Source: an uncultured delta proteobacterium (GTDB lineage Bacteria > Desulfobacterota > Desulfomonilia > UBA1062). Taken from it: 64,000 nt of DNA. The stretch lies in assembly GCA_963785235.1 (NCBI GenBank), contig CAWAUM010000001.1, positions 416,001 through 480,000 on the forward strand, given 5' to 3'. Of this stretch, positions 3,604-26,494 are shown piece by piece. Made by a program: the position numbers and the translations under genes. The notes under the pieces were generated by a model. That model saw only the letters and a list, made by a program, of their open reading frames with translations. It did no database searches and was not told the origin of the DNA. Position 1 is the stretch's first letter; the number at the start of each line of letters is the position of its first letter.

Positions 3604-4501
3604 TCATCTCCTAAGCAGGGATGCCTCTTCACAGACCCACCTGCAATATGTTCCGCTGGGTACCGGCAGCACGAGCCCCTTGCCTTCCAGCAGCATCTCG
3701 CCGCTTTCGTAATGTGATGGAATCTGTGAAGGCGTTGTGCCGGTCAGGATGTTCTGAAGCGCCCGTGGCGTACAGGTGGGGGTATGTGAAGTCAGCAGGA
3801 TGAACAGGGGAGCCTCTGATAGCAGGGTCCAGCATTTTTTCACTGTTGCAATGAGCTCATCCTCGATCTTATAGACCTCTTCATTTTTGCCATGGCCATA
3901 GGTGGGAGGATCCAATATCACTGCATCGTAACGCCGCTGGCGCCTTATCTCTCTTTCCAGAAAACGGTTCACGTCTTCTACTATCCAGCGGATGGGGGCA
4001 TCGGTCAGGTTGTTGAGCTCCGCATTCTCCCTGGCCCATGTGACCATGCCCTTGGATGCATCCAGGTGGCAGACCTGAGCCCCGCAACGTGCAGCCGCAA
4101 GGGTTGCACCGCCGGAGTAGGCAAAGAGGTTGAGCACGGAGACCTGTGTCCGGCCAATGACGTTTGCCTGTGTCAGGAGGGAGTTTATCCATTTCCAGCA
4201 GGCCTCGTTGTTCGGGGAAGATCCCAAGGTGTCCGAAGTCGGTAGGGCAGAGCCTGAAGCTCAGTCCTTCGAGTGTTATACGCCAGGATTCCGGAAGTTC
4301 GGTGCGGACCTGCCAGCCTTTTCCGGGTTTGCGCTCAAAGGTGGCATCGGCCTCTTCCCATGCCGCCGTGTCTTTCTGCGGTTCCCAGATGGCCTGTGCA
4401 CAGGGCCTGATAAGCTGGTAGCGGCCGAAGCGTTCAAGCTTCCTGCCATTACCGCTGTCCATAAGCTCATAATCGTATGCCTGGGGTTGTTTGGTTTTCA
4501 T
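3604..4501 (-). CDS. Class I SAM-dependent methyltransferase (RlmI/RlmK-like, short form), one frameshift near 4200
   Basis: YELMDSGNGRKLERFG...GHLGIFPEQ in ORF 3881-4501, continuing as VLNLFAYSGGAT, DASKG, ILDPPTYG in ORF 3604-4227. Confidence 0.85.
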
Positions 4502-8124: not shown

Positions 8125-9250
8125 CTAAAACACCTTGTTCAGGCCCGCGCTCAGGGTGAAGCCCTTATAATCGAGGTCTTCATCCGGGTGATACCAGTTT
8201 TTCTTGTCCTTCATACTGAACAAAGTCAGGTCAATATTCCCCTTGGTGGTCTTGGAAAAGGTCTTCTCCATGCCGCAGCCGAGGGCTATCTTGTGGCGTC
8301 CTCCGGCATAGTAGGGGGAGTCCTGCTCGAAGCCGTTTTCCGCAATGCTCAGGAAGCTCAAGTGGGATATCACTGAAGTGGTGGAGCTCAGGAAGCATTT
8401 TTCTTTCAGGGTTGCCTGCCATTCATCGCCGTAGTTTTTCTCGCTGTTTATCGGTGTTGCTGCAGTGGTGTAATATTTGCCCTTGGCGCGGAAGATGCCG
8501 GTAATGTCTGCATCCATCTGCCATGACGACCGCGTATAGGTTGCCCCCAAGCCAAGAAGCGTGAGTGCGCCTTCTTTGTAATAATCGTCGCCGCCCACCG
8601 TGTCTTTGCCGTAGCTTGCATATTCGCCCAGGATCCTTCCCTGGAGCTCTTCTGTAAGGGCATAAACACCCTCGGCGGTCATGGTAAAGACATCGCCGGG
8701 ATCAAGGTCCTGGATCATCTCGGAGTAATCATATTCCCCTCTCCACTGGTATCCCATGCCGAATCCGGCTGTCAGCCTTTCCCATTCCTTTGATACACCC
8801 AGATAGGGATTGATGTTGAACCCCTCACCAAACGAGGTGATGGGCAGCAGGTCAGGGGGCAGGTAAGTGAGCGCGAGTTCGTCGGTCTTGAAGTCGGTGT
8901 AACCGGTGGGCAGATTGAACCCGCATCCGGCAAGGATGTCAGCCGGAGTCCGGCCGATAACCTCATAGGAGAAGTTTATCTTGGTGTCAAGAAAGCGGCT
9001 CAGAGATACCGAGTCCCCCTCATCGGGCTTTATGGATGTGTAGGCAAAGGCGTTTAAAAGCTGGCCCTTGAATCCCTCATATACGAACTCAGCGTGTATG
9101 GGCACGGCCACCTGGGTGCCCTTGTCGCTGTTATCGCTTTTGAACCAGGTGAAGCTTACCCCGGTGTCGAGCTGCTTTTCAAGGGCAAGGGCAGGGCTGC
9201 TGAACAGCATTAGTAGCATGAGAATCGGAGCTAATCAATCTATGGATCAT
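8125..9250 (-). CDS. Putative outer-membrane beta-barrel protein (probable frameshift in signal peptide)
   Basis: Signal peptide ending ALA, alternating amphipathic strands throughout, and a C-terminal BAM-type signal (FTLSAGLNKVF); RBS plus ATG at 9250 lies in a different frame from ORF 8125-9219. Confidence 0.7.
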
Positions 9251-9282
9251 ATCCATACCTCACTAGATGATTTCATATTCAT

Positions 9283-10963
9283 TTATGGGAGAACGGTTAT
9301 AACGACATCTTCATAGTCCATCCCAGAAGGTGAACCGTCATCTGTCACGCTGAACCGTATTGTATTTGATACAGGAGGTGTTACAACCGCGCTCGGGGTC
9401 CAGGTGAAGGTCTGTGTTGCGGCATCAAAGGCTACGCCTGCAGGGAGTCCTGAGACGACCGAAGGGGAAGACATGCTGTAGGTCAGCGCATCATTTTCCG
9501 GGTCAGTAGCCGTCACGATGAACTCGATGGGTTGGTTGTTTCTCACAGACCTGCGGCCGATGGGGGTAAGTTCAGGCGGACGGTTCACACTGCCTACAGT
9601 GAACACCACGTCCTCGGATGCGGTGAGGCCGTAGGGGGCATGGTCGGCAGGGTCACTGACGCTGAAACGCAGCCAGTAGTTACCAGGAGTCGAAGATGAC
9701 CATGAAAACTGGTGGGTTCCCGTTGAATCATATATATAGTTGGTTGCAGCCTGCTGGCCGGTTATCGTTGCAGGCGGGTTATAGGTAAGCGGATTGTTGT
9801 CAGGGTCTGTGGCGGTAACAGTAAACGAAACCGTACCCCCTGCTGCGATCTGCCTGTGCCCGATGGGGGCCAGGACAGGGTACCGTCTGTCCATGAGCTC
9901 ATAATCAGCATCAGAATTGTATACCTGTATTTTGACCCATGCATAATCGCTCATCTTCGGGGTTCCATTATCAGTGACCCTGAAGAGGACCTTATATTCA
10001 TCCAAATTAGTAGGGTTATTCCAGGTGAAGATTCTTGTGGAGGGGTCAAAGACAGGGCCCGAGAGGTAGCTGTTCCACCAGTCTTGGGGCATTTCGGCCA
10101 TGTCATAGGTCAGGGTATCGCCATCAGGGTCTGTTGCGGTTACGGTCAGGGAGTTGGAAGAGCCCGGTATGAAATGCTGAGTCTCCAGCGGGAATGTAAT
10201 CACCGGCGGCTGGTTCACAATGCCTACTGTAATGGTTACATCTAAGGTAGCATTTCTCGGCGGAATCCCGTCGTCAGTTGCCTGGAAGCTGACTATGTAG
10301 TTTCCTCCCTGGGCAGAGCCCGGGATCCAGTAGAAGAATTGGCTTGAAGGGTCAAAGGTCGCACCGGTGGGGAGATTAGTTGCACTGTAGGTCAGCTTGT
10401 TTCCGTCAGGATCAGTGGCGCTTACCGTGAAATTCAGGGGCTGAAGCTCACTGACCTGCTGGTTGGCAATGCTGGCAAAGACAGGCGGGTTGTTCGAACT
10501 GGTCACTTCAATCAGCCCCGCATCGGTGGTCTGGCCAGCAATTACCTGGATGCCTCCTTTGCTGCCCCTGAGGACGACATTCCCCTGGGCATCCTTCAGA
10601 GATATGGAGATGGTATAGCCATCCCCCTCCTCGACGCTTCCGATGGTACCTTCTCCCGTGTCGCACGACCAGGGTCCCCCCGAGGCCACAAGAATCTCCT
10701 GGTTGCTGTAAACCTGGGCATCCACGCTTGCAATGCCGTATTCGACACAAGGTATGCTGGTCGCCTTGTATTGGGGCAGGGATGTTTCCGTTGGTGGCAT
10801 CTTCAGGGCAAATGAGATGCCCCCCGTGCCATGTCCGCTGCCGCCTTTGCTGCAGGCACTCAGAAAGCAGGGCAATAAAGAGGATGACAAGGAATCCTCT
10901 CATCAAGGCGGATACGGCATCTGTTCCCCTTTGGTCTGTATGAGAAAGATGAAGGTTGTGCAT
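9283..10963 (-). CDS. Lipoprotein with N-terminal GGPWSCD domain and four cadherin/He_PIG-like Ig repeats (frameshift in signal peptide)
   Basis: Lipobox LSAC, four NxPP...TV.ATDP(D/E)...LTY repeats; start MHNLHL with AGAGG RBS lies in the frame of ORF 10508-11005. Confidence 0.8.
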
Positions 10964-10979
10964 TGCTAATATCCTCTTC

Positions 10980-11886
10980 TTACCATCTGACACGGATCTC
11001 ACCACTGGCCGCCGGCCGGAATTCTCTGAAGGTCGAGATATTCTTTTTGATACTGAGCGTCGATGAATTCTGCTCTTCCTGTGTGGCCAGTACAGCGCTG
11101 CTCCTGGGATTGACGGTCACGAGCTTCAGGTCCATGGAGTTCCCTGATGGCATCGGTTGCCGGGGTTAGCTGCGGATCCTGCTCAAGTGCCTTGCGGTAG
11201 TAGAAATCCGCTGAACCGTAGTTGCCCCGGTCGCTCGCATCGAGCCCCAAGGAGAGGTAAATGAGCGCTCGGTAGCTCGTTGTCAGAGGTCTTTTGAGCT
11301 TTTCCTTCTGTGCCTTGGTGAGCCTGACCTTGAGCAGTTCAATAATCTCGAAGAGGATCTTTTTCTCCATATCGAAGATTTTTTCGGGCTGCCCGTTTGC
11401 AGAAGGCTGACCCAGGGAGCTCTGGTCCTTTACCTGGAGGAGGTCGGATACCACAGAGATCTCCGGAGCCTGGCTGCTTGTGATATCTCCGCCCACCAGG
11501 TAGCTTGCACCCAGCAATTTGCCTAGACGAGGAGAGGTGTTGCTGTCCACGATCCCGGATGCACCGAGATTGAGTTCTTCCAAAAGGGCCTGGAGCTTCA
11601 CCCTTTCCACTATCTGAATGCCCTCCACCTGATGGAGATCTGTCATGAGCATAAAGGCAAAGCCCTTCTGGAGAGGATCCAAGAGAGGTCTGTCCGGATT
11701 TGTTTCTAAAAGCAAGGACAGCCAGTGTATTCGGTGCGGCAATGGTCCCCTGGGACTGTTCCTGTCCATAGCGGTCTTGGCCCAGGCCCTGTCATCATCG
11801 CTCACAACCTGGCCCGCAGAGGCTCTTGGTTCGCAAACCGCACACAGGATAAAGCAGGAAAGGATTAAGATTATGGTCTTTTTCAT
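10980..11886 (-). CDS. Exported CsgG/HfaB/TolB_N-like protein with a TPR (frameshifts)
   Basis: Signal peptide MKKTIIL..ASA; alternate-frame NTLAVLAFRNKSG; IVERVKLQALLEELNLGASGIVDSNTSPRLGKLLGASYLVGG; TPR LGLDASDRGNYGSADFYYRKALEQDP; alternate-frame C-terminus ...SGEIRVRW stop at 10980. Confidence 0.75.
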
Positions 11887-12078
11887 ACCTTTACGTCCTT
11901 TTTGGTATGTATGGTTGCAGGTCTTGCACTGATACATGCAAAACCACGAGTAGCTATACATTTCTTTGAAGAATGGAATAAACCGCCTCATGCTCACGAA
12001 CAACCCCACTCGGAGGTAATTGCCTAGGGTCTTCAGCGACCGCCCAATACACTATATCCTCAGTGGAAAAACGTGGTT

Positions 12079-12106
12079 ATTATAAAGTGAATACCAGTAA
12101 TGTCAA
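12079..12106 (-). promoter_or_regulatory. Consensus sigma70 promoter upstream of the CsgG-like / Ig lipoprotein / beta-barrel genes
   Basis: Minus strand TTGACA (12106-12101), 16-nt spacer, TATAAT (12084-12079). Confidence 0.7.
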
Positions 12107-12203
12107 GTAGACCGTTGCCGGGCGCCTCGGCCTTTGTTTGTTGCCATGGATTTTATTTTTTCAGGTATAGTATGCGAGCAGGGTACTATTCTTTTTTTGT
12201 CAT

Positions 12204-15200
12204 TCAATACCCGAATTCATAAGCGCCCATATCCACAACGTCCCCCATGATACGGGGAATGCCTTCAAGGTCCGTATCAAGGATGCAAGGGGCATCATTG
12301 AACCCTTTGTTAATGCATGGTGAAACGCCGGACAGGTGGAAGTCACCATTTGCCGGGTCAATGAACCCGGGATCCTCGTCTATGCAGTGACTGCCCCATG
12401 GTGTCTCTGTGGAGCCCAGCTCGACATCGCTATAGTCGAGCGTTACTGTGGAGCTCAATCCGTATATCTGCTTGTTATAGGCCCCCCAGCTGTTTGACCA
12501 TACAATGGAGTTCCAGACCGATACCGTACTGCTTTCGCAATATATTCCACCTCCCTTGTAGCTTGCCTGATTCCCATAGACAGTACAGTTCGTTATTGCA
12601 GCATCAGTACTGTTCCAGATTCCTATGCCGCCCCCCCTGGTATCATACGATCCGGTATAAGCGGAATTATTGGTGAAGAGAGAATTGCTGATGCATATCT
12701 TAGGCCCTGTGCAACTGATCCCGCCGCCATTTCCGGCTGTGTTGCCTGTGAATACACTCCGTGAGATCGCTGTATCTGCAGACATACCGTAGATGCCCCC
12801 GCCGGTCCGGCTGGTGGATGCGGTGTTGTTTTCAAACAGGCAGTTTATGACCATAAGCCGTGAAGCATTATTGGAGTTGTTGATCCCGCCACCCTGGGAG
12901 GCATGATTATCCCTGAAGGTGCAGTTGGCAATGGTTAACGATGTTGCCATATTATTATTAGAGATCCCGCCGCCGGGACTTGATGGAGAGTACCCATTCC
13001 TTATAAAGAACCCGTCGATGATTACCGTGCTTGCTGCCCCTGAGAGGGAGAAGCACCTTACCAGGCCTTGCCCGTCCACATATACGGTGTTGTTGGTAAA
13101 GTTTCTCTGGGAGAGGTAATGCTCGGTTCCTTCGAACCCGCCATAGAGTGCCAGGTTCTTATTCACTTCGATCCTTCCGGTCAGGAGATATACCCCTTGT
13201 TTCACCCAGATCTGATCGCCGGGATTCGCCAGCGTTATGGCCTCCTGTATGCCGGGTACTGCCATGGGCCAGCTTCTGCCCGTGTTCCCTGCCTGGCCGT
13301 TTTCAGGGTCGACATATACGATATTCGCAGGCGACACAAAAGGTCCGGGATAACTGCCTGATGCGGGCAGCGGGCGCCCTGGCCGTGCATATCCGTGAAG
13401 GAAAGAATAGGTATGGGGTTCAGAGGTCAGTCGCAGTGCTGAAGGTATAGGTGCCGTTTGATGCCGAACCGGATGAAAGTGTCATGGGGTAAGGGGCATT
13501 GTCTATAAATACGGATGCACTGAGCGGGTTGTGCCCGTCTTGATCCGTGTAATGGACACTGAAGGTGAAGGAGGTGGCAGTTGTCCCATCGCCAGGATCG
13601 ACATGAGCCGTTTATCAGGGCAGGGGGATGGTACACTGTCGGGCCTGGCCAAGATCCTGAAGCCGGAGACCTGCCTGCATCGCCTAGACTGTCGGTGAAG
13701 GAGAAGTAATGAGGAATGGGTTCCGGGGGGTAATGTTCCCTGGTAAGTATAGGTGCCGTTTGACGTGGTTCCCGAAGAAAGGACCATGCTTCTGGGGGAA
13801 CCGTCTATGTATACGAATGCGGTTGAAGGGCTATTCCCGTCCTGGATCATAGTAGCCGATGCTGTAGGTGAATGTGGTTGCAGAGCAGTTCCTTCGCCCG
13901 GGCTTACACCCGGACTGTTGAGGCTGGGCGGAGTATTCACCGAGGTCCAGAAATGCGCCTGTTACGGGCAGCCTTGCCGAGCCTCCGTGTCCGTCGCTGA
14001 ACGAGAAAATAATAGGTGTGCGGTCCCGGGCCCAGGGATGTCCGGAAGGTATAGATGCCGTTGGAAGGAGACGCCCCGGAAGCAAAGGACATGTCATGGC
14101 CTATGCCGTCGATATATACAGACCCGCCCGAAGGAGCCTGTCCGTCCTGGTCATAGTAGTTGACGCTGTAGGTAAATGTTGTTGAAGTTGTTCCGGATCC
14201 AGGGTTCACCGATGCGCCGGTGAGCACCGGAGAATAGTTTACAAAAGGCCCGGCATACGTGTCAATGATCGGAAGCCTGGCTGAGGCCGATGCCGTCAGA
14301 GAAAGAGAAGTAATAGTTATGGGTCCCTGGGGATAGGGTGGTACTGAAGGTGTAGGTACCGTTCGATTCAGTGCCGGATGAGAGTGCCATGGCATGGGCT
14401 GTCCCGTCGATGTACACGTTCCTGGACGCTGGGCGGTCCCCATCCTGATCCGAGTAATGCACACTGTAGGTGAATGTGGTTGTCGTGGTCCCTTCAACAG
14501 GTGTTAGTAAAGGGTTGTCGATCACGGGGGGATGATTGTGCTCAGGGTCGGGTTGAATGGGAACCGTAGGTCCGGACAAGGTTCCGCTCGGAGGTGCCTG
14601 GGCAAAGCCTCCGTGCCCGTCAGCGAATGAGAAGTAATAGTTGTGTGGTCCAGACCCAAGGGTGGTGCTGTAGGTATAGGTGCCGTCCCACGCACTCCCG
14701 GAAAAGAGTTTCATAGAGTGCGGGGCGCCGTCAATGTACACCAAGGCAAGGGCAGCGGCGTGGCTGTCCTGGTCAGAATAATGGATGCTGTAGGTAAAGG
14801 TCGTCCCTGAGGGCCCCTCAGTCGGGCTTAGTTGGCCGTTATTGATTATCGGGTCATGGTTAACCGGGCCGGTCACCGTAAGCCCAAAGAGGATCCCGAG
14901 GAAGGCAGCCGTGCCGAGCCCCCATGACCGTCGGAGAAGGAATAGTAATACTTGTGAGGACCCAGCCGGCAGCTCGGTGCTGTAGGTATAGGTGCCGTCC
15001 CATGCGGTCTTGTCCGGCTGGAAAGGGTCATTGAGTGGGGGATGCCGTCAATATAAACATAGTGGGCTGTGGGGCTTTGCCCGTCCTGGTCGGTATAATG
15101 TACGCCGAAGGTGAAGGTGGTGTCTTCTCCTCCGGTATCAGGGCTCACCTCGGCCCTGCTCAGCACCGGTGCATGGTTTGCTTCGGAGATGATGGTGATG

Positions 15201-16006
15201 GTTACCTTTGCAGTATCCGTTCCGCCGTGGGCATCTTTCGCCTCATAGGTGAAGCTGTCGGTGGTGTCGTTCCCGCCATCGTGGGTATAGCGGAAGGTAC
15301 CGTCCGCATAGATTGTCAGCGAACCGTGGCTTGGCCCTGAGATGGGTGTCGTGTTCGCATACAGGCTCTGCGTGTCAGGGGCAAGGTCATTGTGCAGCAG
15401 GCTTGCATATCCGGAATCCAGAACGCTGACCGTACCCCCCCGGTTTACCGTGGCGGAGTCATTGAGAGCATCGAGGAGGACCTCTTCAGAGCTCAGGAGA
15501 TCGATCTCAATGACAGCCTCTGCCACCTTGCCGGCTATGACCGTGATGTTTGACTTTTTGCCCGTTAAAATGAGCCTTCCCTCATCGTTGTTGAGGTTGA
15601 CACGCACAGACCTGTTGGCTCCATGCTTCACCCTGGTGAGGGTCCCTTGGCCGGCATCACAGCTCCACGGACCTCCCCGGGCTATGAGGGCATTCTCCTC
15701 ATCGAATACCCGGGCCTCCACCACGGAGATGCCGAATTCGGCGCAGCGGTCCGAGATCCCTTTGTACAGGGGTGCGGCAGCAACTGAAGAAAGACTCGAT
15801 AAAGGAAGCTGCAGCGAAAGGGAGAGTGATCCTGTTTCAGGAGAAGGGTTATCACTGGAACTGCTGCAGGAGCACAGGATAAAAATGAAAAGGCACAGGA
15901 AATTACAAAGGTAATGATTCCGGCAGACATAGTTCTGGAATCCTTGAACCTGCCCATCACCGGGTGCTGAAGGGTATGTTGACCGGGTGCAGGTAGTTCC
16001 CTTCAT
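12204..16006 (-). CDS. Large surface lipoprotein: GGPWSCD domain, cadherin-like/Big_9 domain, six ~98-aa beta-sandwich repeats, C-terminal parallel beta-helix (pectin-lyase-like); many frameshifts, start uncertain
   Basis: Lipobox-like LCSC; LLHND..GPSHGSLTIYADGTFRYTHDG..DSFTY; repeats across ORFs 14873-16141, 14262-14876, 13937-14497, 13503-13940; GGGI/F..N repeats and GDFHL...SPCINKG..D..G.PR....VDMGAYEF in ORF 12204-13337. Confidence 0.72.
13400..15180 (-). repeat. Six degenerate tandem coding repeats of about 295 bp
   Basis: Unit consensus N.PP.L....V.P..G...TTFTYSVHY.DQDG..P....VYIDG..H.M.L.SG...NGTYTY...L..G.H.YYFSFSDG.G.SARLP; boundaries approximate. Confidence 0.8.
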
Positions 16007-16382
16007 GGTGTCTCTATTCCAATGTCTTCTCGCCATGTGGCCTATGTACCTTAATCTTTTTTGCCCTTTCCCTTGTGAGACCTCATTGCAAAAAGAGAAG
16101 CCGACAACCAGTTCAATGAATAAACAAAATGAGTATAGCATTCATGCGGTGTGATTGCGATACCCTATGAATCATGGGACATGAAGCAATATTCATGCAA
16201 GACGTATACACTAAATGATATTAACAGGTTAATGCTATTATGAAGAAGCATATCACGAAGCATTGGCAATAAGTTTCCTATTTTGAAGTAAAATAGTTCT
16301 CACACATGGTTATATTTTGAGTCTTGCAAAAAAAAATTAGGAGGCTATTTTTCAGGTAAATTTGCCGATCAATAATTGAGTT

Positions 16383-17503: not shown

Positions 17504-18193
17504 TCAAGAGAAGTATTTTTTCCCATACAGCGCCTGGTCATAGTCTGCCCGGCGGGATGGACAGTTCTGCCTTGGGCACAGGGAGCAGTTCACAAAGTTT
17601 TCACCTCCGACATACTGGATTCCTGTGACGGACTTTAAAGGGTAAAGGAGCATGTGAGGACTCAGGCGGACCCCTACGGTCTTAGTGATCGATTCTAGCA
17701 GAGCGAAGAGTGGCCGCTGCTGAGACAGGGGCCAGTCTTCGAGTGATCCGGGGTTCATGCACGAGAGCTGTGCCGGGCTCACCTTGTCTTTCAGGTGCGC
17801 CTCCAGGGCCGCCATGGCCGAGCCCAGGGCCAGGAGCATGATGGTGTCAGCCCAGAATGCATGCAGTGTCCCGGTTATGGACCGTGCCCATTCCTCCAGC
17901 TCAGGGCCGCAGGTAGCGACAAATGGGTAGACAACCTTTGCGTCGGTCAGGTTAATGCGCAGCACACGACTGTCAAACCGGATCCCCTTGATGAGCACAT
18001 GTGCATCTCCCAGGGAATCCACCGTAGTAACCCTGAAGGCGGCCCTGGGACAGGCAACTGACAATGTCCGGGCGAGCATCCCGGAAAGCTCTCCGGCCAT
18101 CTTCGTGCCGGTCCGGACCTTGAGGATATGGCACAGGTCTTTTTCTTCGATGGTAAAAGGGATGTTATCGAGGATAATCGCGTCTTCGGTCAT
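17504..18193 (-). CDS. Stand-alone B12-dependent methionine synthase activation-domain-like protein
   Basis: FVATCG..LE, MNPGSLEDWPLSQQRPLF, LYPLKSVTGI, C-terminal CSLCPRQNCPSRR. Confidence 0.85.
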   Translation of the reverse strand: MTEDAIILDNIPFTIEEKDLCHILKVRTGTKMAGELSGMLARTLSVACPRAAFRVTTVDSLGDAHVLIKGIRFDSRVLRINLTDAKVVYPFVATCGPELEEWARSITGTLHAFWADTIMLLALGSAMAALEAHLKDKVSPAQLSCMNPGSLEDWPLSQQRPLFALLESITKTVGVRLSPHMLLYPLKSVTGIQYVGGENFVNCSLCPRQNCPSRRADYDQALYGKKYFS

Positions 18194-19772
18194 CTCATTA
18201 CTCCTGAAGGTATGGGGAACGTAGTGCAGCGGATAAATTCATCCTGGAAGCCGGGTTGAAGCGCCAGTTCCACCTCACGGACCTGATCTCTCAGAGTAGA
18301 CGCCCTGTTCATGAACAGGGCGTCTATACAGGCTGTCTCGGCTGCTTTCAGGCTTGTGTTGCCCAGAAATTGCCAGCGCGCATTCGGGAAGTCCGGCAGG
18401 AAACCCAGGGCCTTGAAATTTTCAAGGTTCAGGTGTTCGCCAAAGGCCCCGGCTATGAGCACCTGTTCGATTGCAAGCTGCATCCATGCCGGACTCCTTC
18501 AAAAGGATGCGGGAGGCGGCAAGGCCGGCAGCCTTGGCGAGCTGGAGGTTTCGTATGTCCCTCTGGGTGAAACGGATATCGCCTTCAAGCCTGAGTGTCT
18601 TCATGCCTTCAATTTCTTCGGCGGCAAGTGGGGAGGGCAGGAAAGAGCGCTTAAGGTCCTTACAAAAGGCACCGTCAGGCCGGATGATTTTCCGCCTCAA
18701 AAGGATAGCCGTCAGGTCCACGAGCGCAGTGCCTGAGATGCCGACAGGCTCTCCACTACCCATCATGGACAAGTCAAGACCTCCCGGGCCATCTTCCACT
18801 GCGGTTATGGCCCCGTCTTCGGCGGTCATACCCCAGGTGATGTTCATACCCTCCAGGGCCGGACCCATGGCACACGACGTTGCGAACAGCTCCTTGTTCC
18901 CGTTCATGACGAACAGCTCACCGTTGGTTCCGAGGTCCATGAAGAATGTGTTCTTTTCGATACCGGATCCACGGCACAGGGTAAGCCCGCCCATGAGGTC
19001 TCCGCCGATGAAGGCGCTGAGAACCGGCAGGGCAAGGATCCGTGCGCCCGGAAATGCTGGTGCGCCGATGTCCTCAGGGGTGAACCCGGTAAAGTCCCTT
19101 GTCTTCACCTTGTAGGGGTGTATTCCGAGCGGCACCACGTCGAGGCCGAAGAAAAGCGAGAGCATGGTCGTGTTCCCGGAGAACACGATGAGTTCACAGC
19201 AGCGAGCAGACATGCCGCATGTCTGAATGAACCGCAGCATGGCATTGAACACGGATGAGCGGATAAGATCGGATTGCCTGAGGGCTGTTGCCGGGTCGGA
19301 GCAGGCGGCGATGCGCGAGATCACGTCATGCCCGAACCGGCGCTGGGGGTTAAGGAACGAGTCTATGGGGAAGGTGTCATGGCTTTCAAGATCAATGAGC
19401 GAGACGCGGACCGTAGTGGTGCCGAGGTCGCAGGCCAGCCCGTAGCGGCTTTCCTTGGGAAGGCCTGGGCAGGGTTGCTGTTCCCGCTCAGCTTTCTCCT
19501 CCATGAAGACCTCGACATCGCCTTGTATCACTGCCTGGCATGCCAGGCGCATGCCGGGCATGCCATGCAGTGCCTTTGCTTCGATAGGGTTCTGTCCCGA
19601 AAGATCACCAGTTGCTTTTACCATGCATTTACCGCAGGTGCCCTTGCCTCCGCAGGGGGCTCTCACGGCAATGCCCATATCCATCAGGGCGTCAGCCAGC
19701 AGGGTCTGCCGGGTAAAAAGATGATGCCTGCCTGAAGGGATGAGCCTGAGCCTGCAACCGCTCACCGGGCAT
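18190..19772 (-). CDS. ASKHA/DUF4445 ATP-dependent reductive activator of corrinoid proteins (RACE) with N-terminal 2Fe-2S domain; frameshifts
   Basis: PCGGKGTCGKC, RLACQ, DLGTTT, NPQRRFGHDVISRI, GNTTM, FIGGD, DLGTNGE, GPALEG, TQRDIRNLQLAKAA, then IAGAFG and GNTSL in ORF 18190-18483. Confidence 0.9.
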
Positions 19773-20743
19773 CAACCCTTGAGGCTCAGTGCCGCTTCGA
19801 TGAAGGCATCCAGGTTTTCCGCAGGGGTTTCGGGTGGAAGGTCGCAGCCGGATGAAAGGATGAAACGCTCCCCTTTCATGGCAAGAACCAAACTCAAAAC
19901 CTTTTCCCTGACCATTCCGGGTGTGCCCTTGAGCATGACATCCACCGGGTCAATGTTGCCGAGCAGTGTCTTGGCCTTGAGCAGCGGTGTTTCATCGAGG
20001 ATTTTCCTGAAATCAACAGGCGCGTCAAGACTCAGGCCGAAGAGGTGCTCGGTCCCGGCAAAGGCCTCGCACAACCGGCTGGTGTCTCCGCATACATGCA
20101 TGATGGGCGAGGGGAGTTGCGAAGCTATGCCATCGAGATGGGTTCTGATGGAGTTTGTGAAGACCGCAGGCGGGAAGGCCATGATCTGCGGCTCGAGCAT
20201 GATGATGGCCTGTGCGCCTGCCTCAGCCAATGCCTTGGCATAGGGCGTGATGACAGCTGCACACCGATCAAGGATCCGTGCGAACCCCGGGGCATCCTTC
20301 AGGGCGGCCCTTATCAGTGCGGGCAGGCCCATGAGGTGGGCCGCCACCGTCACTGGTCCCACCACGAAGGCTGCCACCGGCTTGTTGGTCAGGCGGGTAA
20401 GATTTCTGACAGCCTTGATGCCCACCTGCATGGGAGGCGCATCATCGGGCTCAGGAAACCTGAGGCGGTCCACAGCATCGGCGTCTGTACAGATGTGGCC
20501 GGTTATCACCGGGACCCTGCCTTTGAACTCCCAGGGGCACCCGAGTGTACGCGCCTCCACCGAGGTGTCCATGAGCGGTGCTGCAATGTCGATGTCCGGG
20601 AAGCGTTTTAGGAAAGCTGCGAGCGCCTCGGCCTGGGTCTCGGGATTGTGGATGGCCTCCTCGGCCGGGACCCCGGCCAGGCGTATTCCCATGGAAGATG
20701 CAATGGGCGCGATGCAGGGGAAGGGGATGTCTTTTATGCCCAT
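19772..20743 (-). CDS. URO-D superfamily methyltransferase, MtaA/CmuA (MT2)-like
   Basis: VEARTLG, VVGPVT.A, Zn-type motif MHVCG plus ILSSGCDLPPETP, LLGNIDPV. Confidence 0.85.
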   Translation of the reverse strand: MGIKDIPFPCIAPIASSMGIRLAGVPAEEAIHNPETQAEALAAFLKRFPDIDIAAPLMDTSVEARTLGCPWEFKGRVPVITGHICTDADAVDRLRFPEPDDAPPMQVGIKAVRNLTRLTNKPVAAFVVGPVTVAAHLMGLPALIRAALKDAPGFARILDRCAAVITPYAKALAEAGAQAIIMLEPQIMAFPPAVFTNSIRTHLDGIASQLPSPIMHVCGDTSRLCEAFAGTEHLFGLSLDAPVDFRKILDETPLLKAKTLLGNIDPVDVMLKGTPGMVREKVLSLVLAMKGERFILSSGCDLPPETPAENLDAFIEAALSLKG

Positions 20744-20745
20744 GT

Positions 20746-21393
20746 TCACGCCGCCTTGCTGTAGGAGGTGAAGATCCGCAATGCATCGATGGCGGTCTCG
20801 CCGTAGGCGTCCGCCCCCATCTCACGGCACAGGGCCTCAGAGGTGCAGGCCCCTCCGATGACGATCTTCACGGCATCCCGCAGTCCCGCCTTTGCGCTCA
20901 TTTCCACCACGTCGCGGATGCTCCCCACCATGGTGGTGAGCAGGGCGGAGAGCCCTATGAACCGTGCCCCGGTGGCCTTGGCCGTTTCAATGATGCGCTG
21001 TGCAGGCACGTCCACCCCCAGGTCGATGACCTCGAACCCGTTGGCAGACAGGATCATGCCAACGATGTTCTTGCCGATCTCGTGAATGTCTCCGGCCACC
21101 GTTGCCAGGATAACCTTGCCGCGCAGGCTTGCTTCATCAGGGTTCATACGTGCCTTGAGAGCCGGCATGGCCTCCCGCACCACCTCGCCTGCCATGACGA
21201 GGTCTGCCAGGAAGTATTCACCCGACTCGAATTTTTTACCCACGATCTCAAGCCCTTTGCTGATGCCGTCCTGGATGATCTCCTCGGGCGCTAAGCCTTC
21301 TGCGAGGGCCTTCTCCACCAGGGGGATTATGGCATCGATATCCAGTTCGTCGATGGCCTTTACAATGGCTGCGATTGCATCCTTCATGGGCAT
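20746..21393 (-). CDS. Corrinoid (B12-binding) methyltransferase protein
   Basis: Cap domain (GKKFESGEYFLADL), DxHxxG motif GDIHEIGKNIV, DLGVDV, GLSALLTTM, IGGA, GADAY. Confidence 0.95.
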   Translation of the reverse strand: MPMKDAIAAIVKAIDELDIDAIIPLVEKALAEGLAPEEIIQDGISKGLEIVGKKFESGEYFLADLVMAGEVVREAMPALKARMNPDEASLRGKVILATVAGDIHEIGKNIVGMILSANGFEVIDLGVDVPAQRIIETAKATGARFIGLSALLTTMVGSIRDVVEMSAKAGLRDAVKIVIGGACTSEALCREMGADAYGETAIDALRIFTSYSKAA

Positions 21394-21442
21394 CTCTCCT
21401 CTCTTTTCATCATAAGGTTTGCGTATACAAAACCATGGCCTT

Positions 21443-22612
21443 TTAGGAAACGGCTATAGGGTACGAACCGTAGCGAGCCACGGCATCGACCATGACGGTA
21501 AGCTTGTGCGCCGGGATGCTGCTCAGGCTGTGGACCGGCGAGATAATGAACCGTCCGCCGGGCCCCAGCTCGGCTATGAGCTTCTTCACGCTGTCCACCA
21601 CCTCGTGGTCTTTCGAGCGGTCCGTAAGGAGGTAATCAACGCCCACGCCCCCGATCATGGTCACCTTGTCCCCGTGGATCTTCTTCTCATGGAAGATGTC
21701 CACATTCGAGGTGTTCTCATAGGCGTGCAGCCCGTCGACGCCCCAGGAGATGAAGGTGTCGAAGAGCAGCGTGTTGTCGCCGCACGAGTGGAGAACATAC
21801 TTGCCGCCGCGGTCATGGACCGCCTTGATGATGCGCCGGTAGGGCCCTCCAAAGAGCTCGTCGATGAGTTTCGGGTTCATGATGGGGCCGCTCTTGAAGG
21901 CGAAGTCGTCGCTCTGGAGGACGACCGGTATGCCTGCATCGAGCATGGCCATGGCGGTCTTGAGGCTGACCTCTTCGCACAGGTCGATGAAGCGCTTGAC
22001 GAGATCTTTCTCCCTCCTGATCCACAGCGGCAGCCGTTCGATGCCGATAGCCCAGTACAGGGACTCCTGGATGCCGTATGCCGAGGACTGGCCAAAGAGG
22101 CAGATCCTCTCGCCGTACTTGGCCACCATCTTTTTGAAGAACCGGTAGGTGCTCTGGGCGAGCCGGTCCGGGTCGGGCCAGTAAGGCCAGGACTCGAAAT
22201 CTTCCCTGCTCTTGATGCCCGGGCAGCGGTACATGTAGGTCATATTGCCGAGCCCGTCGGGCTGCAGGTTGAAGATGGATCCGGTGCAGCGGGCCATGGT
22301 GTTGTGGTTGAGTATGGTGAAGGTTTCGTCCAGGATGGCCCAGGTGGAGTCGAAACCAAGCTCGCAGGCTGCCTTGATACGCTTTTCCATGGCGCGGTTG
22401 ATCTCCGGCTGGACGATGGGTCTGGTCAGCTTCGGCCCCCAGCGGTCAAGGATGAATCGGGTAAACGGGTTGTTGAGCTGCTTCTCCTGGGATACGAGAG
22501 GCTTGCCCAGCACCTCGTTGAAGGTACTGTCTTCCACCATGGCGCAGAACGTGGGGACACGGTCTACGGGTTTGCCTTCGAAAGTGCGGAGAACGCGTTC
22601 CTTGGGGTGCAT
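21443..22612 (-). CDS. URO-D family protein, probable substrate-specific methyltransferase (MT1)
   Basis: MHPKERVL...KPVDRVP, SDDFAFKSGP, LHSCG, GGRFIISPVHS. Confidence 0.82.
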   Translation of the reverse strand: MHPKERVLRTFEGKPVDRVPTFCAMVEDSTFNEVLGKPLVSQEKQLNNPFTRFILDRWGPKLTRPIVQPEINRAMEKRIKAACELGFDSTWAILDETFTILNHNTMARCTGSIFNLQPDGLGNMTYMYRCPGIKSREDFESWPYWPDPDRLAQSTYRFFKKMVAKYGERICLFGQSSAYGIQESLYWAIGIERLPLWIRREKDLVKRFIDLCEEVSLKTAMAMLDAGIPVVLQSDDFAFKSGPIMNPKLIDELFGGPYRRIIKAVHDRGGKYVLHSCGDNTLLFDTFISWGVDGLHAYENTSNVDIFHEKKIHGDKVTMIGGVGVDYLLTDRSKDHEVVDSVKKLIAELGPGGRFIISPVHSLSSIPAHKLTVMVDAVARYGSYPIAVS

Positions 22613-22775: not shown

Positions 22776-23525
22776 TCAGGGCGTTTTTAAAGGGATCGTG
22801 CGTCTCCCGGCCTTCAGGTCCAGTGCGGTGAGCAGTCTTTTTTCTGCATCGATTACTGCATCATCCATGATGCGTGCCGCATTGTCCGGGTCTTTGCTGC
22901 TGATCGCGGCAGTCAGGTCATTGACGAAAGCGATGGTTGCCTGCGCAGAATCGGGCAGATTGTAGTAAATGTCCGTATAATACCGGTAGATGGGCTTGAA
23001 CGAGTTGAAGAGGAGCTGAAAGATGAGGTCTTTTGTCATCCTGGCGAGTAAGGAATGGAACTGAAAATCGCTCTCGGAGATTTTTGCAGTACCCTTGCCA
23101 TGTCTCCCCAGTGCCTTTATCAGGACCTCTCCTGCAATGCGGAACTCTTCGATATCATCGGGCCCGGCCATGAGGGCGGCCTGGCTTGCATAAAAAGGTG
23201 CGGTAATCCGTCTGAATCTGAGCAGGGATATGAGCACCCCGGAATCAATGACCTCGGTGGTCTTCATGATGTGGACAAGCAGGTCAAGCGATCCCTCTGT
23301 CTGGTAGTCGGTGACATAGGTCCCGCTCTGGGCAAGGGTCTTTACCAGGCCGAGTTCGCTCAAATGGGCCACAGCCTCCCTCACGGCCGGTCGGCTTGCA
23401 GTGTATATGCGGGCGAGCTCGCGCTCGGAGGGAAACCTGGAGTGCGGCTTGTAAAGGCCACTGAGAATCGCCTTTTCCAGCTCGAGAAAGATCTTGTGTG
23501 AAACACGTAAGGGCATGGACGACAC
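22776..23525 (-). CDS. GntR/FadR-family transcriptional regulator
   Basis: wHTH FPSERELARIY.ASRPAVREAV..L...GLV....SGTYV and FCD-type DFQFH. Confidence 0.92.
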   Translation of the reverse strand: MSSMPLRVSHKIFLELEKAILSGLYKPHSRFPSERELARIYTASRPAVREAVAHLSELGLVKTLAQSGTYVTDYQTEGSLDLLVHIMKTTEVIDSGVLISLLRFRRITAPFYASQAALMAGPDDIEEFRIAGEVLIKALGRHGKGTAKISESDFQFHSLLARMTKDLIFQLLFNSFKPIYRYYTDIYYNLPDSAQATIAFVNDLTAAISSKDPDNAARIMDDAVIDAEKRLLTALDLKAGRRTIPLKTP

Positions 23526-23808: not shown

Positions 23809-24363
23809 ATGAAGACGTATGCTGAGATGGGAAGGAAACTCCTCAACATAATTCTGTTTCAGGCGGTTTGGTTCGCAGCAGTGCTGGGGGCTGCAGGCGG
23901 AAATGACTGGTATGGGCCGCTGGCGGTGGCGCTGGTGCTTTTGGTGCATTTCGTGCTCACGGAAGACCGCCTAAGTGAGCTGAGTTTGCTGCTTGTAGCT
24001 GGAATTCTCGGATTCTGTTTCGATACAGCGCTGTCGGTCGCTGAAATCGTCACCCCCCGGGGAGATATCCTGCCCCATCCGCTCAGCCAGCCCTGGATGA
24101 TCTCCCTCTGGCTCAATTTCGCAGCCACGCTCAATGTATCTCTGGAATGGCTCAAGGGGCGCTACCTGTTGGCGGCAATTTTCGGCGCTGTCGGAGGGAC
24201 CTGCGCCTACTACGGCGGCGCACGGCTGGGAGCGACACTGGCGCTGCCGGATGTCCATGGTATCATCATTCTGGCAGTGGGTTGGGGGATCGTGACACCG
24301 ATTCTGGTGTGGCTGGCGGGGAGGTTTCAGAAGAAAGACTTCCCTTCAAAAACAGTTCCATGA
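23809..24363 (+). CDS. DUF2878-family membrane protein
   Basis: NIILFQAVWF, PWMISLWLNFAATLN.SL.WL, FGAVGG..AY.GG..LGA. Confidence 0.85.
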   Translation: MKTYAEMGRKLLNIILFQAVWFAAVLGAAGGNDWYGPLAVALVLLVHFVLTEDRLSELSLLLVAGILGFCFDTALSVAEIVTPRGDILPHPLSQPWMISLWLNFAATLNVSLEWLKGRYLLAAIFGAVGGTCAYYGGARLGATLALPDVHGIIILAVGWGIVTPILVWLAGRFQKKDFPSKTVP

Positions 24364-24393
24364 GAACACCTCACATACGGAAGGAAGGAAAGC

Positions 24394-24798
24394 ATGATGA
24401 AGGTCATCTATCTCTATTTTCTCACAATACCTGTATTTTTCGGGATCGATATGATCTGGCTCGGGTTTGTGGCAAAGGGGTTTTACCACAAGAATCTGGG
24501 TCATCTGCTCCGGCCGGATGTCAACTGGACCGCCGCACTTGTCTTCTATCTGCTGTACATCGGCGGTATCCTGATCTTTGCAACTATGCCGGCACTGGAG
24601 AAAAATTCGCTGTATCAGGCAGTTGTTCTCGGGGGGTTGTTCGGTTTCTTCGCCTATGCCACCTATGACTTAACTAACATGGCCACCCTGAAGGACTGGC
24701 CGCTCAATGTCGTTATAGTGGATATCATCTGGGGCATAGTGCTGACTGCAAGCGTTGCGGCGGCGAGCTTCCTGATCGGCCGATGGCTCATGACTTGA
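24394..24798 (+). CDS. DUF2177-family membrane protein
   Basis: IDMIWLG, FY..LG.L, AYATYDLTN.ATLKDWP....VD..WG. Confidence 0.9.
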   Translation: MMKVIYLYFLTIPVFFGIDMIWLGFVAKGFYHKNLGHLLRPDVNWTAALVFYLLYIGGILIFATMPALEKNSLYQAVVLGGLFGFFAYATYDLTNMATLKDWPLNVVIVDIIWGIVLTASVAAASFLIGRWLMT

Positions 24799-24823
24799 GA
24801 GAAGAGCTGCAAGGGGTGATTCA

Positions 24824-25603
24824 ATGAAACTGGCCAATACCTTTTTAAGCGCTGCACTGATCGTGTTCCTGTACATGACGGCATTATACCTGCTGGCTCT
24901 CAGGCGCAAGGACAACAGTATTGCCGATGTGGCCTGGGGTTCGGGTTTTATACTCGTGGCCTGGTTCACCTTTCTTTTGTACGGTTCCTTTACCGTGCGG
25001 CAACTCACAGCTTGTTTTCTGGTATTGATCTGGGGGCTCAGGCTCTCCGTCAGGATCTATCTGCGCAACAGAGGTAAAGGGGAAGATGCACGGTACCGGA
25101 AGTGGCGGGAGGAATGGGGCAAGTCTTTTATCATAAGGAGCTATCTCCAGGTTTTCCTCCTGCAGGGAGGAATCCTGATTCTGAACATTACCCCTGTTCT
25201 TTTCATCAATACCTATGCCGCGGGTAACCCGGGTCTGATGGACTTGCTGGGAGTGTCTCTGTGGGTGATGGGTTTCTGCTTCGAGTCTGTTGCCGACTGG
25301 CAGCTGGACAGGTTCATCAAGAACCCGGATAACCGGGGTAAAATCATGGACCAGGGCCTTTGGCGTTATTCAAGACACCCAAACTACTTCGGCGAAGTCA
25401 CCATGTGGTGGGGCATATATATACTGGCTTTATCAGTACCCTGGGGTTGGGCATCCATTATCGGACCACTCACGATAAGCTACATAATCCTGTTTGTGTC
25501 CGGGGTTCCTATGACGGAAAGATTCATGGAGGACAATCCGGCATTCGCTGACTACAAAAGACGAACGAGTGCATTTTTCCCCTGGTTTCCGGGAAAGGAT
25601 TGA
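24824..25603 (+). CDS. DUF1295 (steroid 5-alpha reductase-like) membrane protein
   Basis: SIADVAWG, WGLRL, GEDARY, ADWQL, GLWRYSRHPNYFGE, YKRRTSAFFPW. Confidence 0.92.
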   Translation: MKLANTFLSAALIVFLYMTALYLLALRRKDNSIADVAWGSGFILVAWFTFLLYGSFTVRQLTACFLVLIWGLRLSVRIYLRNRGKGEDARYRKWREEWGKSFIIRSYLQVFLLQGGILILNITPVLFINTYAAGNPGLMDLLGVSLWVMGFCFESVADWQLDRFIKNPDNRGKIMDQGLWRYSRHPNYFGEVTMWWGIYILALSVPWGWASIIGPLTISYIILFVSGVPMTERFMEDNPAFADYKRRTSAFFPWFPGKD

Positions 25604-25652
25604 ATACGAAAGTGCATGGTATTTATTCTGCAAAGGGAGATAAGGTGGATGT

Positions 25653-26282
25653 ATGAACAGTAAAACACGGAAACTTCTTCTCTTAAGCATTATTATGACA
25701 GCCCTCTTGATGACAGCCCTCTTGATCCCCTTACCGAACAACATCGCCCTGGCAGGCTCGGATAAGGGTCAGTCCGCCGGCACGATCACCATCTCAGGGG
25801 TTGTGATGGATAAGACAGTTCAAATAGACGGCTATTCATGTGACTTGATCGGGGCAGGACTGCTCCGCTATCGGACTGTGTTCAAGGCATATGTGGCAGC
25901 CCTCTATCTGGGGAAAAAGCATACCTCTTCAGACCTGTTCAAAGACATCCCCAAGAGCCTGGTGATCGAGTACTTCCATGGGATTGCTGCCCAGGATTTC
26001 ATTTCAGCCACCCAGCAGGGTTTCATGAATAACCTCTCCAAGGATCAACTGGAGGCAATCAATGAACGAGCCAAGACCCTCTATTCCCTTTACCGTGATG
26101 TCAAGCCGAAGGATAGATATTCTTTTACATACATACCAGGTATAGGCTCACAAATAGCCCTGAATGGAAAGGTTTTAGGGACCATCAAGGGACTTGATTT
26201 TTCAAACGCCATGCTGTCCATCTGGCTTGGTCCTAATCCGCTGGATCAGAACCTGAAAAAAGCTCTTCTGGGCAAGAATTAA
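25653..26282 (+). CDS. Exported chalcone isomerase-like (fatty-acid-binding) protein
   Basis: Signal peptide, L.GAG.......KAYVAALY, LSIWLG..P....LK.ALLG. Confidence 0.85.
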   Translation: MNSKTRKLLLLSIIMTALLMTALLIPLPNNIALAGSDKGQSAGTITISGVVMDKTVQIDGYSCDLIGAGLLRYRTVFKAYVAALYLGKKHTSSDLFKDIPKSLVIEYFHGIAAQDFISATQQGFMNNLSKDQLEAINERAKTLYSLYRDVKPKDRYSFTYIPGIGSQIALNGKVLGTIKGLDFSNAMLSIWLGPNPLDQNLKKALLGKN

Positions 26283-26494
26283 AAGATTCTCTATAAAAAG
26301 CATAAGAGGTTCTGCCAGGGTTGCATAACGAGAAGAAGGTATACATATGCAGATGCCTTCACTCTTCTCAGGGGTACCTCTTGAGGAAACATAAAAACGA
26401 AGCTCCTTGAGCTTGATTTTCTCTTACGTCTTTCTTACTTTGTATTATATTGTCTTATTACTGAGGAGTTATACCTTAGGCGGGGGAACAAGTA

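Follow-up and report, generated by a model that had tools for sequence, protein, structure and literature searches.

A candidate docking domain of outer-membrane lipoproteins and a matching C-terminal tail on the proteins encoded upstream

Gene organization of the locus

We analyzed a stretch of 64,000 nucleotides from an uncultured delta proteobacterium (GenBank assembly GCA_963785235.1, contig CAWAUM010000001.1, positions 416,001 to 480,000 of the forward strand), subsequently referred to as the window. Positions in it are counted from its first letter. On its minus strand, at 8125–16036, lie four co-oriented and closely spaced genes, as an initial annotation of this DNA had already noted. 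They encode two lipoproteins (genes A and B), a TolB_N/CsgG-like protein (the partner) and an outer-membrane beta-barrel of about 16 strands (Table 1). Both lipoproteins begin with the same domain of ~120 amino acids (aa), which we call the handle. The general feature of handle loci is a C-terminal [T]GxIxVxW tail on whatever protein is encoded directly upstream. This tail is found on three unrelated partner architectures, two of which are linked to outer-membrane barrels; these barrels are of two unrelated kinds, Slam being one.

In gene A, a Ser-rich linker connects the lipobox Cys (codon 15866–15868) to the first strand of the handle (TGSLSLSL), and the motif GGPWSCD comes after it. Gene B is built alike, with a lipobox Cys, a Gly-rich linker, strand 1 (TGGISFAL), the invariant Cys36 and Cys64, and GGPWSCD. 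The parts behind the handle, here called passengers, differ between the two proteins, as had been noted: He_PIG, Big_9 and cadherin-like repeats in gene B, and in gene A a Big_9/cadherin domain, ~90-aa repeats and a PMP beta-helix. No Pfam or NCBIfam model matches the ~90-aa repeats, and Tandem Repeats Finder reported no DNA-level tandem repeat in gene A, the units being too divergent for it. The beta-helix matches Pfam Chlam_PMP (3.3e-12) and DUF5123 as well as NCBIfam choice_anch_Q (36.4 bits, cut-off 25). Gene B and the barrel gene are separated by 26 bases. The gene limits needed correction: the start is 9256 instead of 9219 for the barrel, 10963 for gene B and 16036 or 16006 for gene A, and the CsgG-like gene spans 11886–10980.

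Table 1. Features of the four-gene cluster in the window and of selected related loci
Feature	Position	Strand	Basis or remark
Gene A, lipoprotein, ~1270 codons	12204..16036	minus	Three-frame ORF pieces and tblastn with orthologues; alternative start 16006
Gene A, shared N-terminal domain	15491..15868	minus	From lipobox Cys; BLASTP, domain HMM 122 bits
Gene A, Big_9 / cadherin-like domain	15194..15466	minus	Pfam Big_9 2e-19, Cadherin_4 1.6e-11
Gene A, divergent ~90-aa repeats	13430..15190	minus	Pattern TTFTYSVHYSDQDG...VYIDG...NGTYTF...YYFSFSDGHGG; hold most frameshifts
Gene A, C-terminal right-handed beta-helix (PMP repeats), choice-of-anchor Q end	12204..13337	minus	Pfam/NCBIfam
Gene A, many frameshifts	~13400 to 15050	minus	ORF pieces in three frames
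Partner protein (CsgG-like gene)	10980..11886	minus	Signal peptide, TolB_N/CsgG-like alpha/beta module, one TPR-like motif, C-terminal tail
Partner, C-terminal tail SGEIRVRW	10983..11006	minus	Fits motif [T]-G-x-[IV]-x-[IV]-x-W-stop
Partner, frameshift	near 11125-11135	minus	True C-terminus in other frame, read via orthologue P0283
Gene B, lipoprotein, ~560 aa	9283..10963	minus	Orthologues P0004 to P0015 begin MHSIHL...LLSACSKGG
Gene B, shared N-terminal domain	10492..10854	minus	BLASTP, alignment, AlphaFold2 model
Gene B, passenger of He_PIG / Big_9 / cadherin-like Ig repeats	9283..10491	minus	Pfam He_PIG 4.8e-26, Big_9 1.9e-17
Gene B, frameshift	near 10870	minus	Inside signal peptide
Outer-membrane beta-barrel, ~374 aa, ends in F	8125..9256	minus	Model and homologues
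Barrel, frameshift	near 9232	minus	Directly after start
Peptidase_C14 lipoproteins	L005:7988-9253, L013:5654-6739, L052:4141-5400		Upstream of tail protein; Pfam; further loci by phmmer
DUF4384 proteins, weak FlgT_N match	L013:4768-5571, L035:2010-2864, L037:4203-4994, L072:3558-4031		Upstream of tail protein
ORF, open reading frame; HMM, hidden Markov model; TPR, tetratricopeptide repeat; Ig, immunoglobulin.

The handle and its family

The handles of genes A and B are 42% identical over 91 aa (BLASTP, E 8e-23), confirming that the same domain directly follows the lipobox in both lipoproteins. Their alignment comprises 127 columns, 46 of which are invariant; among these are the lipobox Cys, a further pair of Cys residues and GGPWSCD. 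A profile made from the two sequences was searched against 1.84 billion protein representatives and retrieved 728 cluster representatives from several phyla at E<=1e-3, 282 of them at E<=1e-10. An N-terminal position, a lipidation signal and variable passengers, three traits that the initial annotation had proposed as checks, were all found. Of the 150 matches listed, 147 start at residue 80 or before (the exceptions are P0118, P0148 and P0151). In an alignment of 95 members, the lipobox Cys is conserved to at least 90%, as are two further Cys, GGPW and several Gly. Both internal Cys, noted earlier from just two sequences, are invariant in a 53-row alignment, and GGPW.C was found in 121 of 147 representatives.

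The proteins range from 82 to 1287 aa. Pfam assigns many different passengers to the 95 members, most often Big_9 (35), Cadherin_4 (25), PKD_4 (20), He_PIG (15) and fn3 (11), followed by Lcl_C (6), FGE-sulfatase (4), beta-helix (4), RCC1 (3) and beta-propellers. The handle itself is covered by no Pfam or NCBIfam model (eight domain sequences, E<=5), and the language-model Atlas returned unnamed clusters only, in line with the earlier impression that it belongs to no named family. We conclude that the handle is the N-terminal domain of a large unnamed family of outer-membrane lipoproteins whose C-terminal parts look like adhesins or binding modules.

The AlphaFold2 model of the handle, based on the 53-row alignment (predicted local distance difference test, pLDDT, 86.8), is a seven-stranded beta-sandwich that is complete by itself. 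A loop after strand 1 is modeled with low confidence (block means of 57 and 73 for residues 21–40). Foldseek searches against the PDB gave weak, generic matches (best E 5.9e-4), among them a transthyretin-like domain, CnaB pilins, cohesins and FimA/Mfa2. Strand 1 follows the template T-G-S-[IV]-x-F-S, with T in 49, G in 73, S in 52, I/V/A/L in 74 and F/L in 75 of 76 sequences. One lipoprotein of the P0024 protein family (L011:9704-12523) harbors two handle copies in tandem; the second matches from model position 30 onward and has no recognizable first strand.

A conserved tail on the protein encoded upstream

Species-representative genomes were scanned with a degenerate DNA pattern for GGPW.C....G.[IL]..[VI]..G, which gave at least 79 loci (80 stretches), or 74 after removal of five overlapping duplicates. 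In 67 of these loci the domain matched with at least 60 bits, in 78 copies altogether. Left out were chance matches without the domain (L007, L053, L063, L065, L073, L076) and one weak partial match (L021). The loci were then searched with our own HMMs for barrel, partner and domain. They stem mostly from metagenome-assembled genomes (MAGs) of Desulfobacterota; further carriers are two cultured strains, Desulfatitalea alkaliphila M08but (L045) and Desulfosarcina variabilis (L003), Nitrospinota, one member of the Thermodesulfovibrionia, one MAG labelled Cytophagales and several labelled Bacteriovoracaceae.

For 51 of the 78 domain copies (51 of the 67 loci), an ORF on the same strand and at most 1 kb upstream ends in G.[IVLFAT].[IVLF].W. 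Variant W tails in five further loci (L033, L037, L041, L045, L047) bring the count to 56 of 67. Among the strict tails, G occupies position −7 in all 51, T position −8 in 30, and V or I positions −5 and −3 in 43 and 49, respectively, with W as the last residue. The proteins that end in this way are CsgG-like and ~300 aa long in 18 cases, long with a TPR-CsgG-like-TPR layout in 11 and small in 22; the five variant tails belong to two CsgG-like, one long and two small proteins. As a control, we collected all 6654 six-frame ORFs of at least 60 aa from the 74 loci (965,706 bp). Just 53 of them end in the motif, 51 being the ORFs found directly upstream of domain genes; of the remaining two, one encodes the CsgG-like protein of L017.

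No strict tail precedes the other 27 copies. Eleven of these are second copies within a cluster, four have less than 600 bases of upstream sequence and five have the variant tails. In two more the partner lies one gene away (L017, L043), in one (L006) a divergent pair of Slam and CsgG-like genes is nearby, and the last four have no partner in view. The tail could conceivably be a by-product of the ribosome-binding site of the next gene. This was ruled out, since the motif is kept at the protein level over gaps of 72–372 bases (to the domain start).

Together with the Gly-rich linker before it, the tail follows the same template as the linker and strand 1 of the handle. Matched pairs of tail and strand 1 share hydrophobic residues more often than shuffled pairs (29 matches), a value reached by 1 of 5000 shuffles and inflated by kinship among the loci.

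Three types of neighborhood

Twenty loci have the gene order of the window: a CsgG-like partner of ~300 aa, then the lipoprotein, then the barrel, all co-oriented. Eighteen of them carry strict tails, L041 and L045 variant ones. The barrel is present in 19; the exception, L004, has just 1094 bases downstream. A second domain gene may follow the barrel (L019, L038, L039, L050, L057, L079) or precede the partner, as in L008 and the window. Co-occurrence of the domain with the barrel and the CsgG-like gene, a check proposed in the initial annotation, holds within the loci that have a ~300-aa partner, but the pair is found in only ~20 of the 67 loci.

In the second type, a TPR-CsgG-like-TPR protein of 400–600 aa is encoded directly upstream of the lipoprotein (11 strict cases and L047), one gene away (L017, L043), or nearby and divergent from the domain gene (L006). 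The gene that precedes this long partner is a Slam homologue above the SlipAM (PF04575) cut-off of 22 bits in L017 (38.6 bits, model positions 1–288 of 288), L011 (41) and L043 (27). L074 shows a sub-threshold match to TPR_Slam only (30.4 bits, cut-off 35.2). An HMM built from the Slam-like proteins of these four loci also finds L006 strongly and L047 weakly. The initial annotation had drawn an analogy to Slam. For these lineages it proved apt, since a true PF04575 homologue stands beside a CsgG-like gene and a lipoprotein; the barrel of the window, however, is not a Slam (see below). In L001 (6685-8187), the long partner is preceded by a protein with FHA and SLT transglycosylase domains that is not a Slam homologue.

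Small partners of ~100–140 aa directly upstream define the third type (22 strict cases plus L033 and L037). In these proteins a signal peptide and a hydrophobic segment are followed by a Gly-rich stretch and the tail. Genes for a DUF4384/FlgT_N-like protein and for a lipoprotein containing a Peptidase_C14 caspase domain often lie upstream (Table 1). The caspase gene is seemingly reduced to an N-terminal piece of 156 aa in L024, L025, L030, L034, L064 and L075.

We also observed a recurrent module near many loci, made up of a Ser/Thr kinase, an AhpC/TSA-TPR-CsgG-like-FlgT_C protein of ~650 aa and a CsgG/LpoB/FlgO-like lipoprotein of ~180 aa (L003:15608-19294, L077:1398-3978, L014:9428-13654, L055:6916-11338, L074:8040-9950 and others). 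The kinase has a PEGA domain in L014 and L055. The window lacks this module.

The CsgG-like partner

The partner of the window matches Pfam CsgG (PF03783) with 2.8e-10 and 40.3 bits (cut-off 20.8), over model positions 38–100 of 210 only, and contains one TPR-like motif below the Pfam cut-off. Its family has at least 144 clusters of homologues, ~301 aa in length, which their sources label 'CsgG/HfaB family' or 'TolB-like'. The consensus of 56 homologues starts like a signal-peptidase I substrate (...A|GQVV), with no conserved Cys and no lipobox; a loose regular expression finds a lipobox-like string in 23 of 120 homologues. A PDB sequence search with the 56-homologue profile (E<=1) returned TPR proteins only and no CsgG. 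Since the lipobox and a PDB match to CsgG are both missing, a true CsgG channel is ruled out as far as can be demonstrated, and the partner is better described as a TolB_N-type module. Of the CsgG/TolB_N-like TPR protein that had been annotated here, the TolB_N-type module and a single sub-threshold TPR-like motif remain.

In a sample gathered by homology alone, the motif tail ends 66 of 120 partner homologues, essentially all of those above ~45% identity; three more have M at position −3. Distant homologues (P0348-P0402) often end in ...NIxVxFP or similar instead of ...IxVxW, which may be a sister tail for another cargo family. Complex prediction for the partner (P0283, residues 25–301) and the handle scored 0.34, 0.02 and 0.18 in three runs against a mark of 0.32, and speaks neither for nor against binding.

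The barrel

The barrel was modeled with a pLDDT of 91.1 and ends in Phe, as had been annotated. Its strands, about 16 by our reading of the DSSP output, begin at residue 14. The most highly conserved motifs are located in a long loop with a helix (residues 104–134 of the 364-aa ORF; NLPTG.T ... FGEGFN.NP). Its unnamed family has at least 140 clusters of homologues that are ~374 aa long and come mainly from Desulfobacterota; a minority matches PF13557 or PF13505, and 112 of 120 homologues end in F. The window barrel itself has no family match at E<=1, and PDB sequence searches with it found none either. The nearest Atlas cluster is unnamed, with PF13557 in 16% of its members. Foldseek gave generic matches with template modelling (TM) scores of 0.40–0.50, FadL and CymA being among the top ones.

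A Slam homologue was considered for this barrel and ruled out: none of 61 homologues matches SlipAM at E<=1, and hhalign against the four Slam-like neighbors gave a probability of 1.6%. The barrel is kept beside the lipoprotein down to ~35–40% barrel identity.

Frameshifts and flanking genes

Single-base frameshifts interrupt all four genes of the cluster. Despite them, gene A is full-length when compared by tblastn with the orthologues P0017 (1218 aa) and P0018 (1287 aa), with 78% identity over the N-terminal 328 aa and 74% over the C-terminal 377 aa. Split genes are also found outside the cluster (a methyltransferase at 3604-4501, a RACo-like activase at 18190-19765 and an amine oxidase at 26495-27752), which makes an error-prone assembly as likely an explanation as decay.

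The flanks are unrelated to the cluster and encode a cation-efflux protein, RNA methyltransferases and a corrinoid methyltransferase set. The latter (18422-22612, minus strand) consists of a RACo-type activase, two URO-D/MtaA-like proteins and a B12-binding protein and is adjoined by a GntR/FadR regulator (22776-23525). Further on, at 23809-29749 on the plus strand, we found DUF2878, DUF1295, chalcone-isomerase-like and amine oxidase genes as well as a 666-aa fusion of DUF1365 and cyclopropane-fatty-acid synthase. An Rfam scan of the window gave no match.

Proposed mechanism and alternatives

We propose that the handle is a docking domain of surface-displayed lipoproteins that are served by interchangeable barrels, and rate the chances of this reading as about even. 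After Sec export and lipidation, the lipoprotein would present a disulfide-stabilized seven-stranded sandwich a few Gly or Ser residues past the lipid. The protein encoded upstream would recognize this handle through its C-terminal tail, a Gly-rich linker and [T]GxIxVxW-COOH, which appears to mimic the linker and strand 1 of the handle itself (TGS[IV]xFS). Docking would probably occur by strand pairing or strand replacement. In loci of the window type, the tail is borne by a periplasmic protein with a TolB_N/CsgG-like module plus TPR, and the dedicated 16-strand barrel comes next. In other lineages this place is occupied by a Slam/T11SS barrel, and in yet others small tail-bearing proteins stand beside caspase-like and DUF4384 proteins. 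At the inner face of the outer membrane, the partner most likely retains the lipoprotein or hands it over. The barrel would then let the passenger reach the cell surface, with the pair of handle and partner acting as the anchor.

The function that the initial annotation proposed for the shared domain (sorting, anchoring or polymerization) is still an inference. The further assumption that the barrel and the CsgG-like protein serve it agrees with their genomic linkage, but the pair is not universal, and the common element is the tail on the upstream protein. The earlier idea is largely borne out and needs to be re-centered on the tail and the handle.

Several observations weigh against docking and surface display. 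The barrel is seen in only ~20 of 67 loci. Additional domain copies within a cluster, gene A among them, lack a partner gene, and in at least four loci (L042, L048, L054, L066) none is in view despite ample upstream sequence. Known Slam cargo carries a C-terminal 8-strand barrel domain, according to PMC12282271. That domain (TbpBBD / lipoprotein C) is not among the 25 commonest Pfam families of the 95 members and is absent from genes A and B; the window barrel, moreover, lacks the Slam homology that was looked for. Periplasmic folding of the handle, suggested by the invariant Cys pair, is as compatible with a periplasmic anchor as with a complete lack of export. The locus counts are not independent events, because the sample was selected by motif, is limited in size and contains many relatives, and the system may be inactive in this genome, because all four window genes are frameshifted.

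It is possible, if somewhat unlikely, that the tail and the handle exchange strands as in type V pili. Strand 1 of the handle would be displaced or cut off and replaced by the C-terminal strand of the partner, so that the adhesin is locked to a scaffold without a covalent bond; the role of processing protease would fall to the caspase-like lipoproteins encoded in some loci. The template shared by tail and strand 1, each behind a Gly-rich or Gly/Ser linker, fits this idea, as do the excess of shared hydrophobic residues (reached by 1 of 5000 shuffles, with related loci inflating it), the low-confidence loop after strand 1, the Peptidase_C14 lipoprotein genes of the small-partner loci, and the presence of FimA and Mfa2 type V pilins among the highest query TM-scores (0.56–0.59). 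These fold matches are weak (E 1.6e-3 to 2.4e-2), however, and generic beta-sandwiches score equally. The handle model is also a complete sandwich by itself, the window locus has no caspase gene, and the C-termini of the lipoproteins show no conserved donor strand; therefore no polymer is expected. A broader version would be strand-swap anchoring outside Bacteroidota. Strand 1 would be exchanged for the look-alike C-terminal strand of a CsgG/TolB_N-like or tiny membrane partner, fastening interchangeable adhesin passengers to an envelope scaffold, with a Slam-type or the new 16-strand barrel giving passage through the outer membrane. We put this forward tentatively and with more doubt than conviction.

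A purely periplasmic envelope complex, with the partner as a scaffold like LpoB, TolB or FlgT and the barrel as a porin or anchor, seems unlikely. The fold class of the partner suits periplasmic families (weak matches to LpoB and FlgT_N/FlgO), its consensus has a signal-peptidase I site without a conserved Cys, the Cys pair of the handle is compatible with periplasmic folding, and most loci show no barrel. Yet cadherin, PKD, He_PIG, PMP beta-helix and choice-of-anchor Q passengers are typical extracellular modules, the dedicated barrel stays beside the lipoprotein even at ~35–40% identity, and long-partner loci contain homologues of Slam, whose known role is lipoprotein surface exposure (PMC8406197). 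The barrel could instead be an unrelated uptake channel for hydrophobic compounds, of the PF13557/FadL type, that shares the operon by chance. PF13557 is matched by 13 of 61 barrel homologues (best 1.7e-12), and FadL and CymA rank high among the fold matches. We regard this as improbable in view of the fixed place of the barrel after the lipoprotein in 19 of 20 loci of the window type, the tight spacing of 26 bases in the window, the substitution by a Slam-type barrel in other lineages and the generic nature of fold matches at TM 0.40–0.50. Finally, the handle might be a generic Ig-type domain that may sit at any position, or the shared N-terminus a mere local duplication; its fold is a common beta-sandwich without a specific structural neighbor. 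The occurrence of 728 representatives across several phyla, the N-terminal position (147 of the 150 matches listed), the distinctive motifs and the distinctive gene neighbors rule this out; the chance that either holds is minute.

Comparison with known systems

To our knowledge, the placement of lipoproteins on the cell surface is largely unknown in diderms beyond a few Proteobacteria, Bacteroidota and spirochaetes. In our literature searches, neither the domain nor the tail nor the gene set turned up. What we describe here is real and widespread, has no name so far, and falls under the known theme of dedicated outer-membrane machinery for lipoproteins. What is gained is a large unnamed cargo handle that is easily recognized, a short and highly specific tail on the partner, and two unrelated barrel types at the same place of the locus. 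With these elements and cultured carriers at hand, the question is therefore testable.

A named model with some likeness to the tail is NCBIfam NF058595, 'lipo-invert putative C-terminal anchoring domain' (invert_tail). Of 23 small partners scanned, 8 match it in their tail region, which is hydrophobic and rich in Gly. All these matches stay below the cut-off of 37 bits (best 21 bits, E 3.3e-4), and none was obtained for window-type or long partners. A literature search under this name found no paper. NF058595 may be a related idea of its curators, and this limits our claim of novelty.

The partner resembles the CsgG/HfaB, LpoB, TolB_N and FlgT_N modules in exceeding the Pfam cut-off for CsgG, and its names in the source agree. 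It differs in that the match is partial, the consensus lacks a lipobox, and a TPR-like motif and the W tail are added; its sequence holds nothing that would point to a 36-strand channel. The likeness of the barrel to PF13557 (Phenol_MetA_deg) and generic barrels is confined to a fraction of its homologues and of the nearest Atlas cluster, whereas the window barrel has no such match and has a loop motif and gene context of its own.

In type V pili (FimA/Mfa of Bacteroidota), the first strand is removed or displaced and the C-terminal strand of another protein takes its place. The handle system shares with them lipoprotein precursors (the lipobox Cys is conserved to at least 90%), a first strand directly behind the lipid anchor whose place the C-terminal strand of another protein could fill, and a clan CD peptidase near some loci. 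Here, in contrast, the donor strand would belong to another protein that is not a pilin, nothing indicates polymerization, the C-termini of the passengers differ, and the carriers belong to other phyla (Desulfobacterota, Nitrospinota and others). Sequence and fold similarity are not significant: FimA (4q98) reaches a query TM-score of 0.59 (E 1.6e-3) and Mfa2 (5nfi) 0.58 (E 8.8e-3), and unrelated sandwiches score alike.

In the Slam/type XI secretion system (T11SS; DUF560, PF04575), too, an outer-membrane barrel is encoded beside its lipoprotein cargo, whose functional parts vary, and TPR modules are involved. True PF04575 members stand beside a CsgG-like gene and a lipoprotein in L011, L017 and L043, with relatives in L074, L006 and L047. 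The Slam barrel has 14 strands, whereas the window barrel is not homologous and has about 16 by our reading of the model. TPR are found on a separate periplasmic partner here and not at the N-terminus of the barrel protein, and a tail-bearing partner is unknown in T11SS. The cargo element also differs, being an N-terminal sandwich instead of the C-terminal 8-strand barrel of known cargo (PMC12282271). CsgG, TolB and Desulfo- do not occur in the main text of the T11SS papers PMC8406197 and PMC12282271. If our proposal is true, it would extend Slam/T11SS to a new class of cargo, and it may aid surface-proteome prediction and surface display in sulfate reducers, syntrophs and Nitrospinota. Among the known systems, the handle system works most like Slam/T11SS, and some of its relatives use a real Slam.

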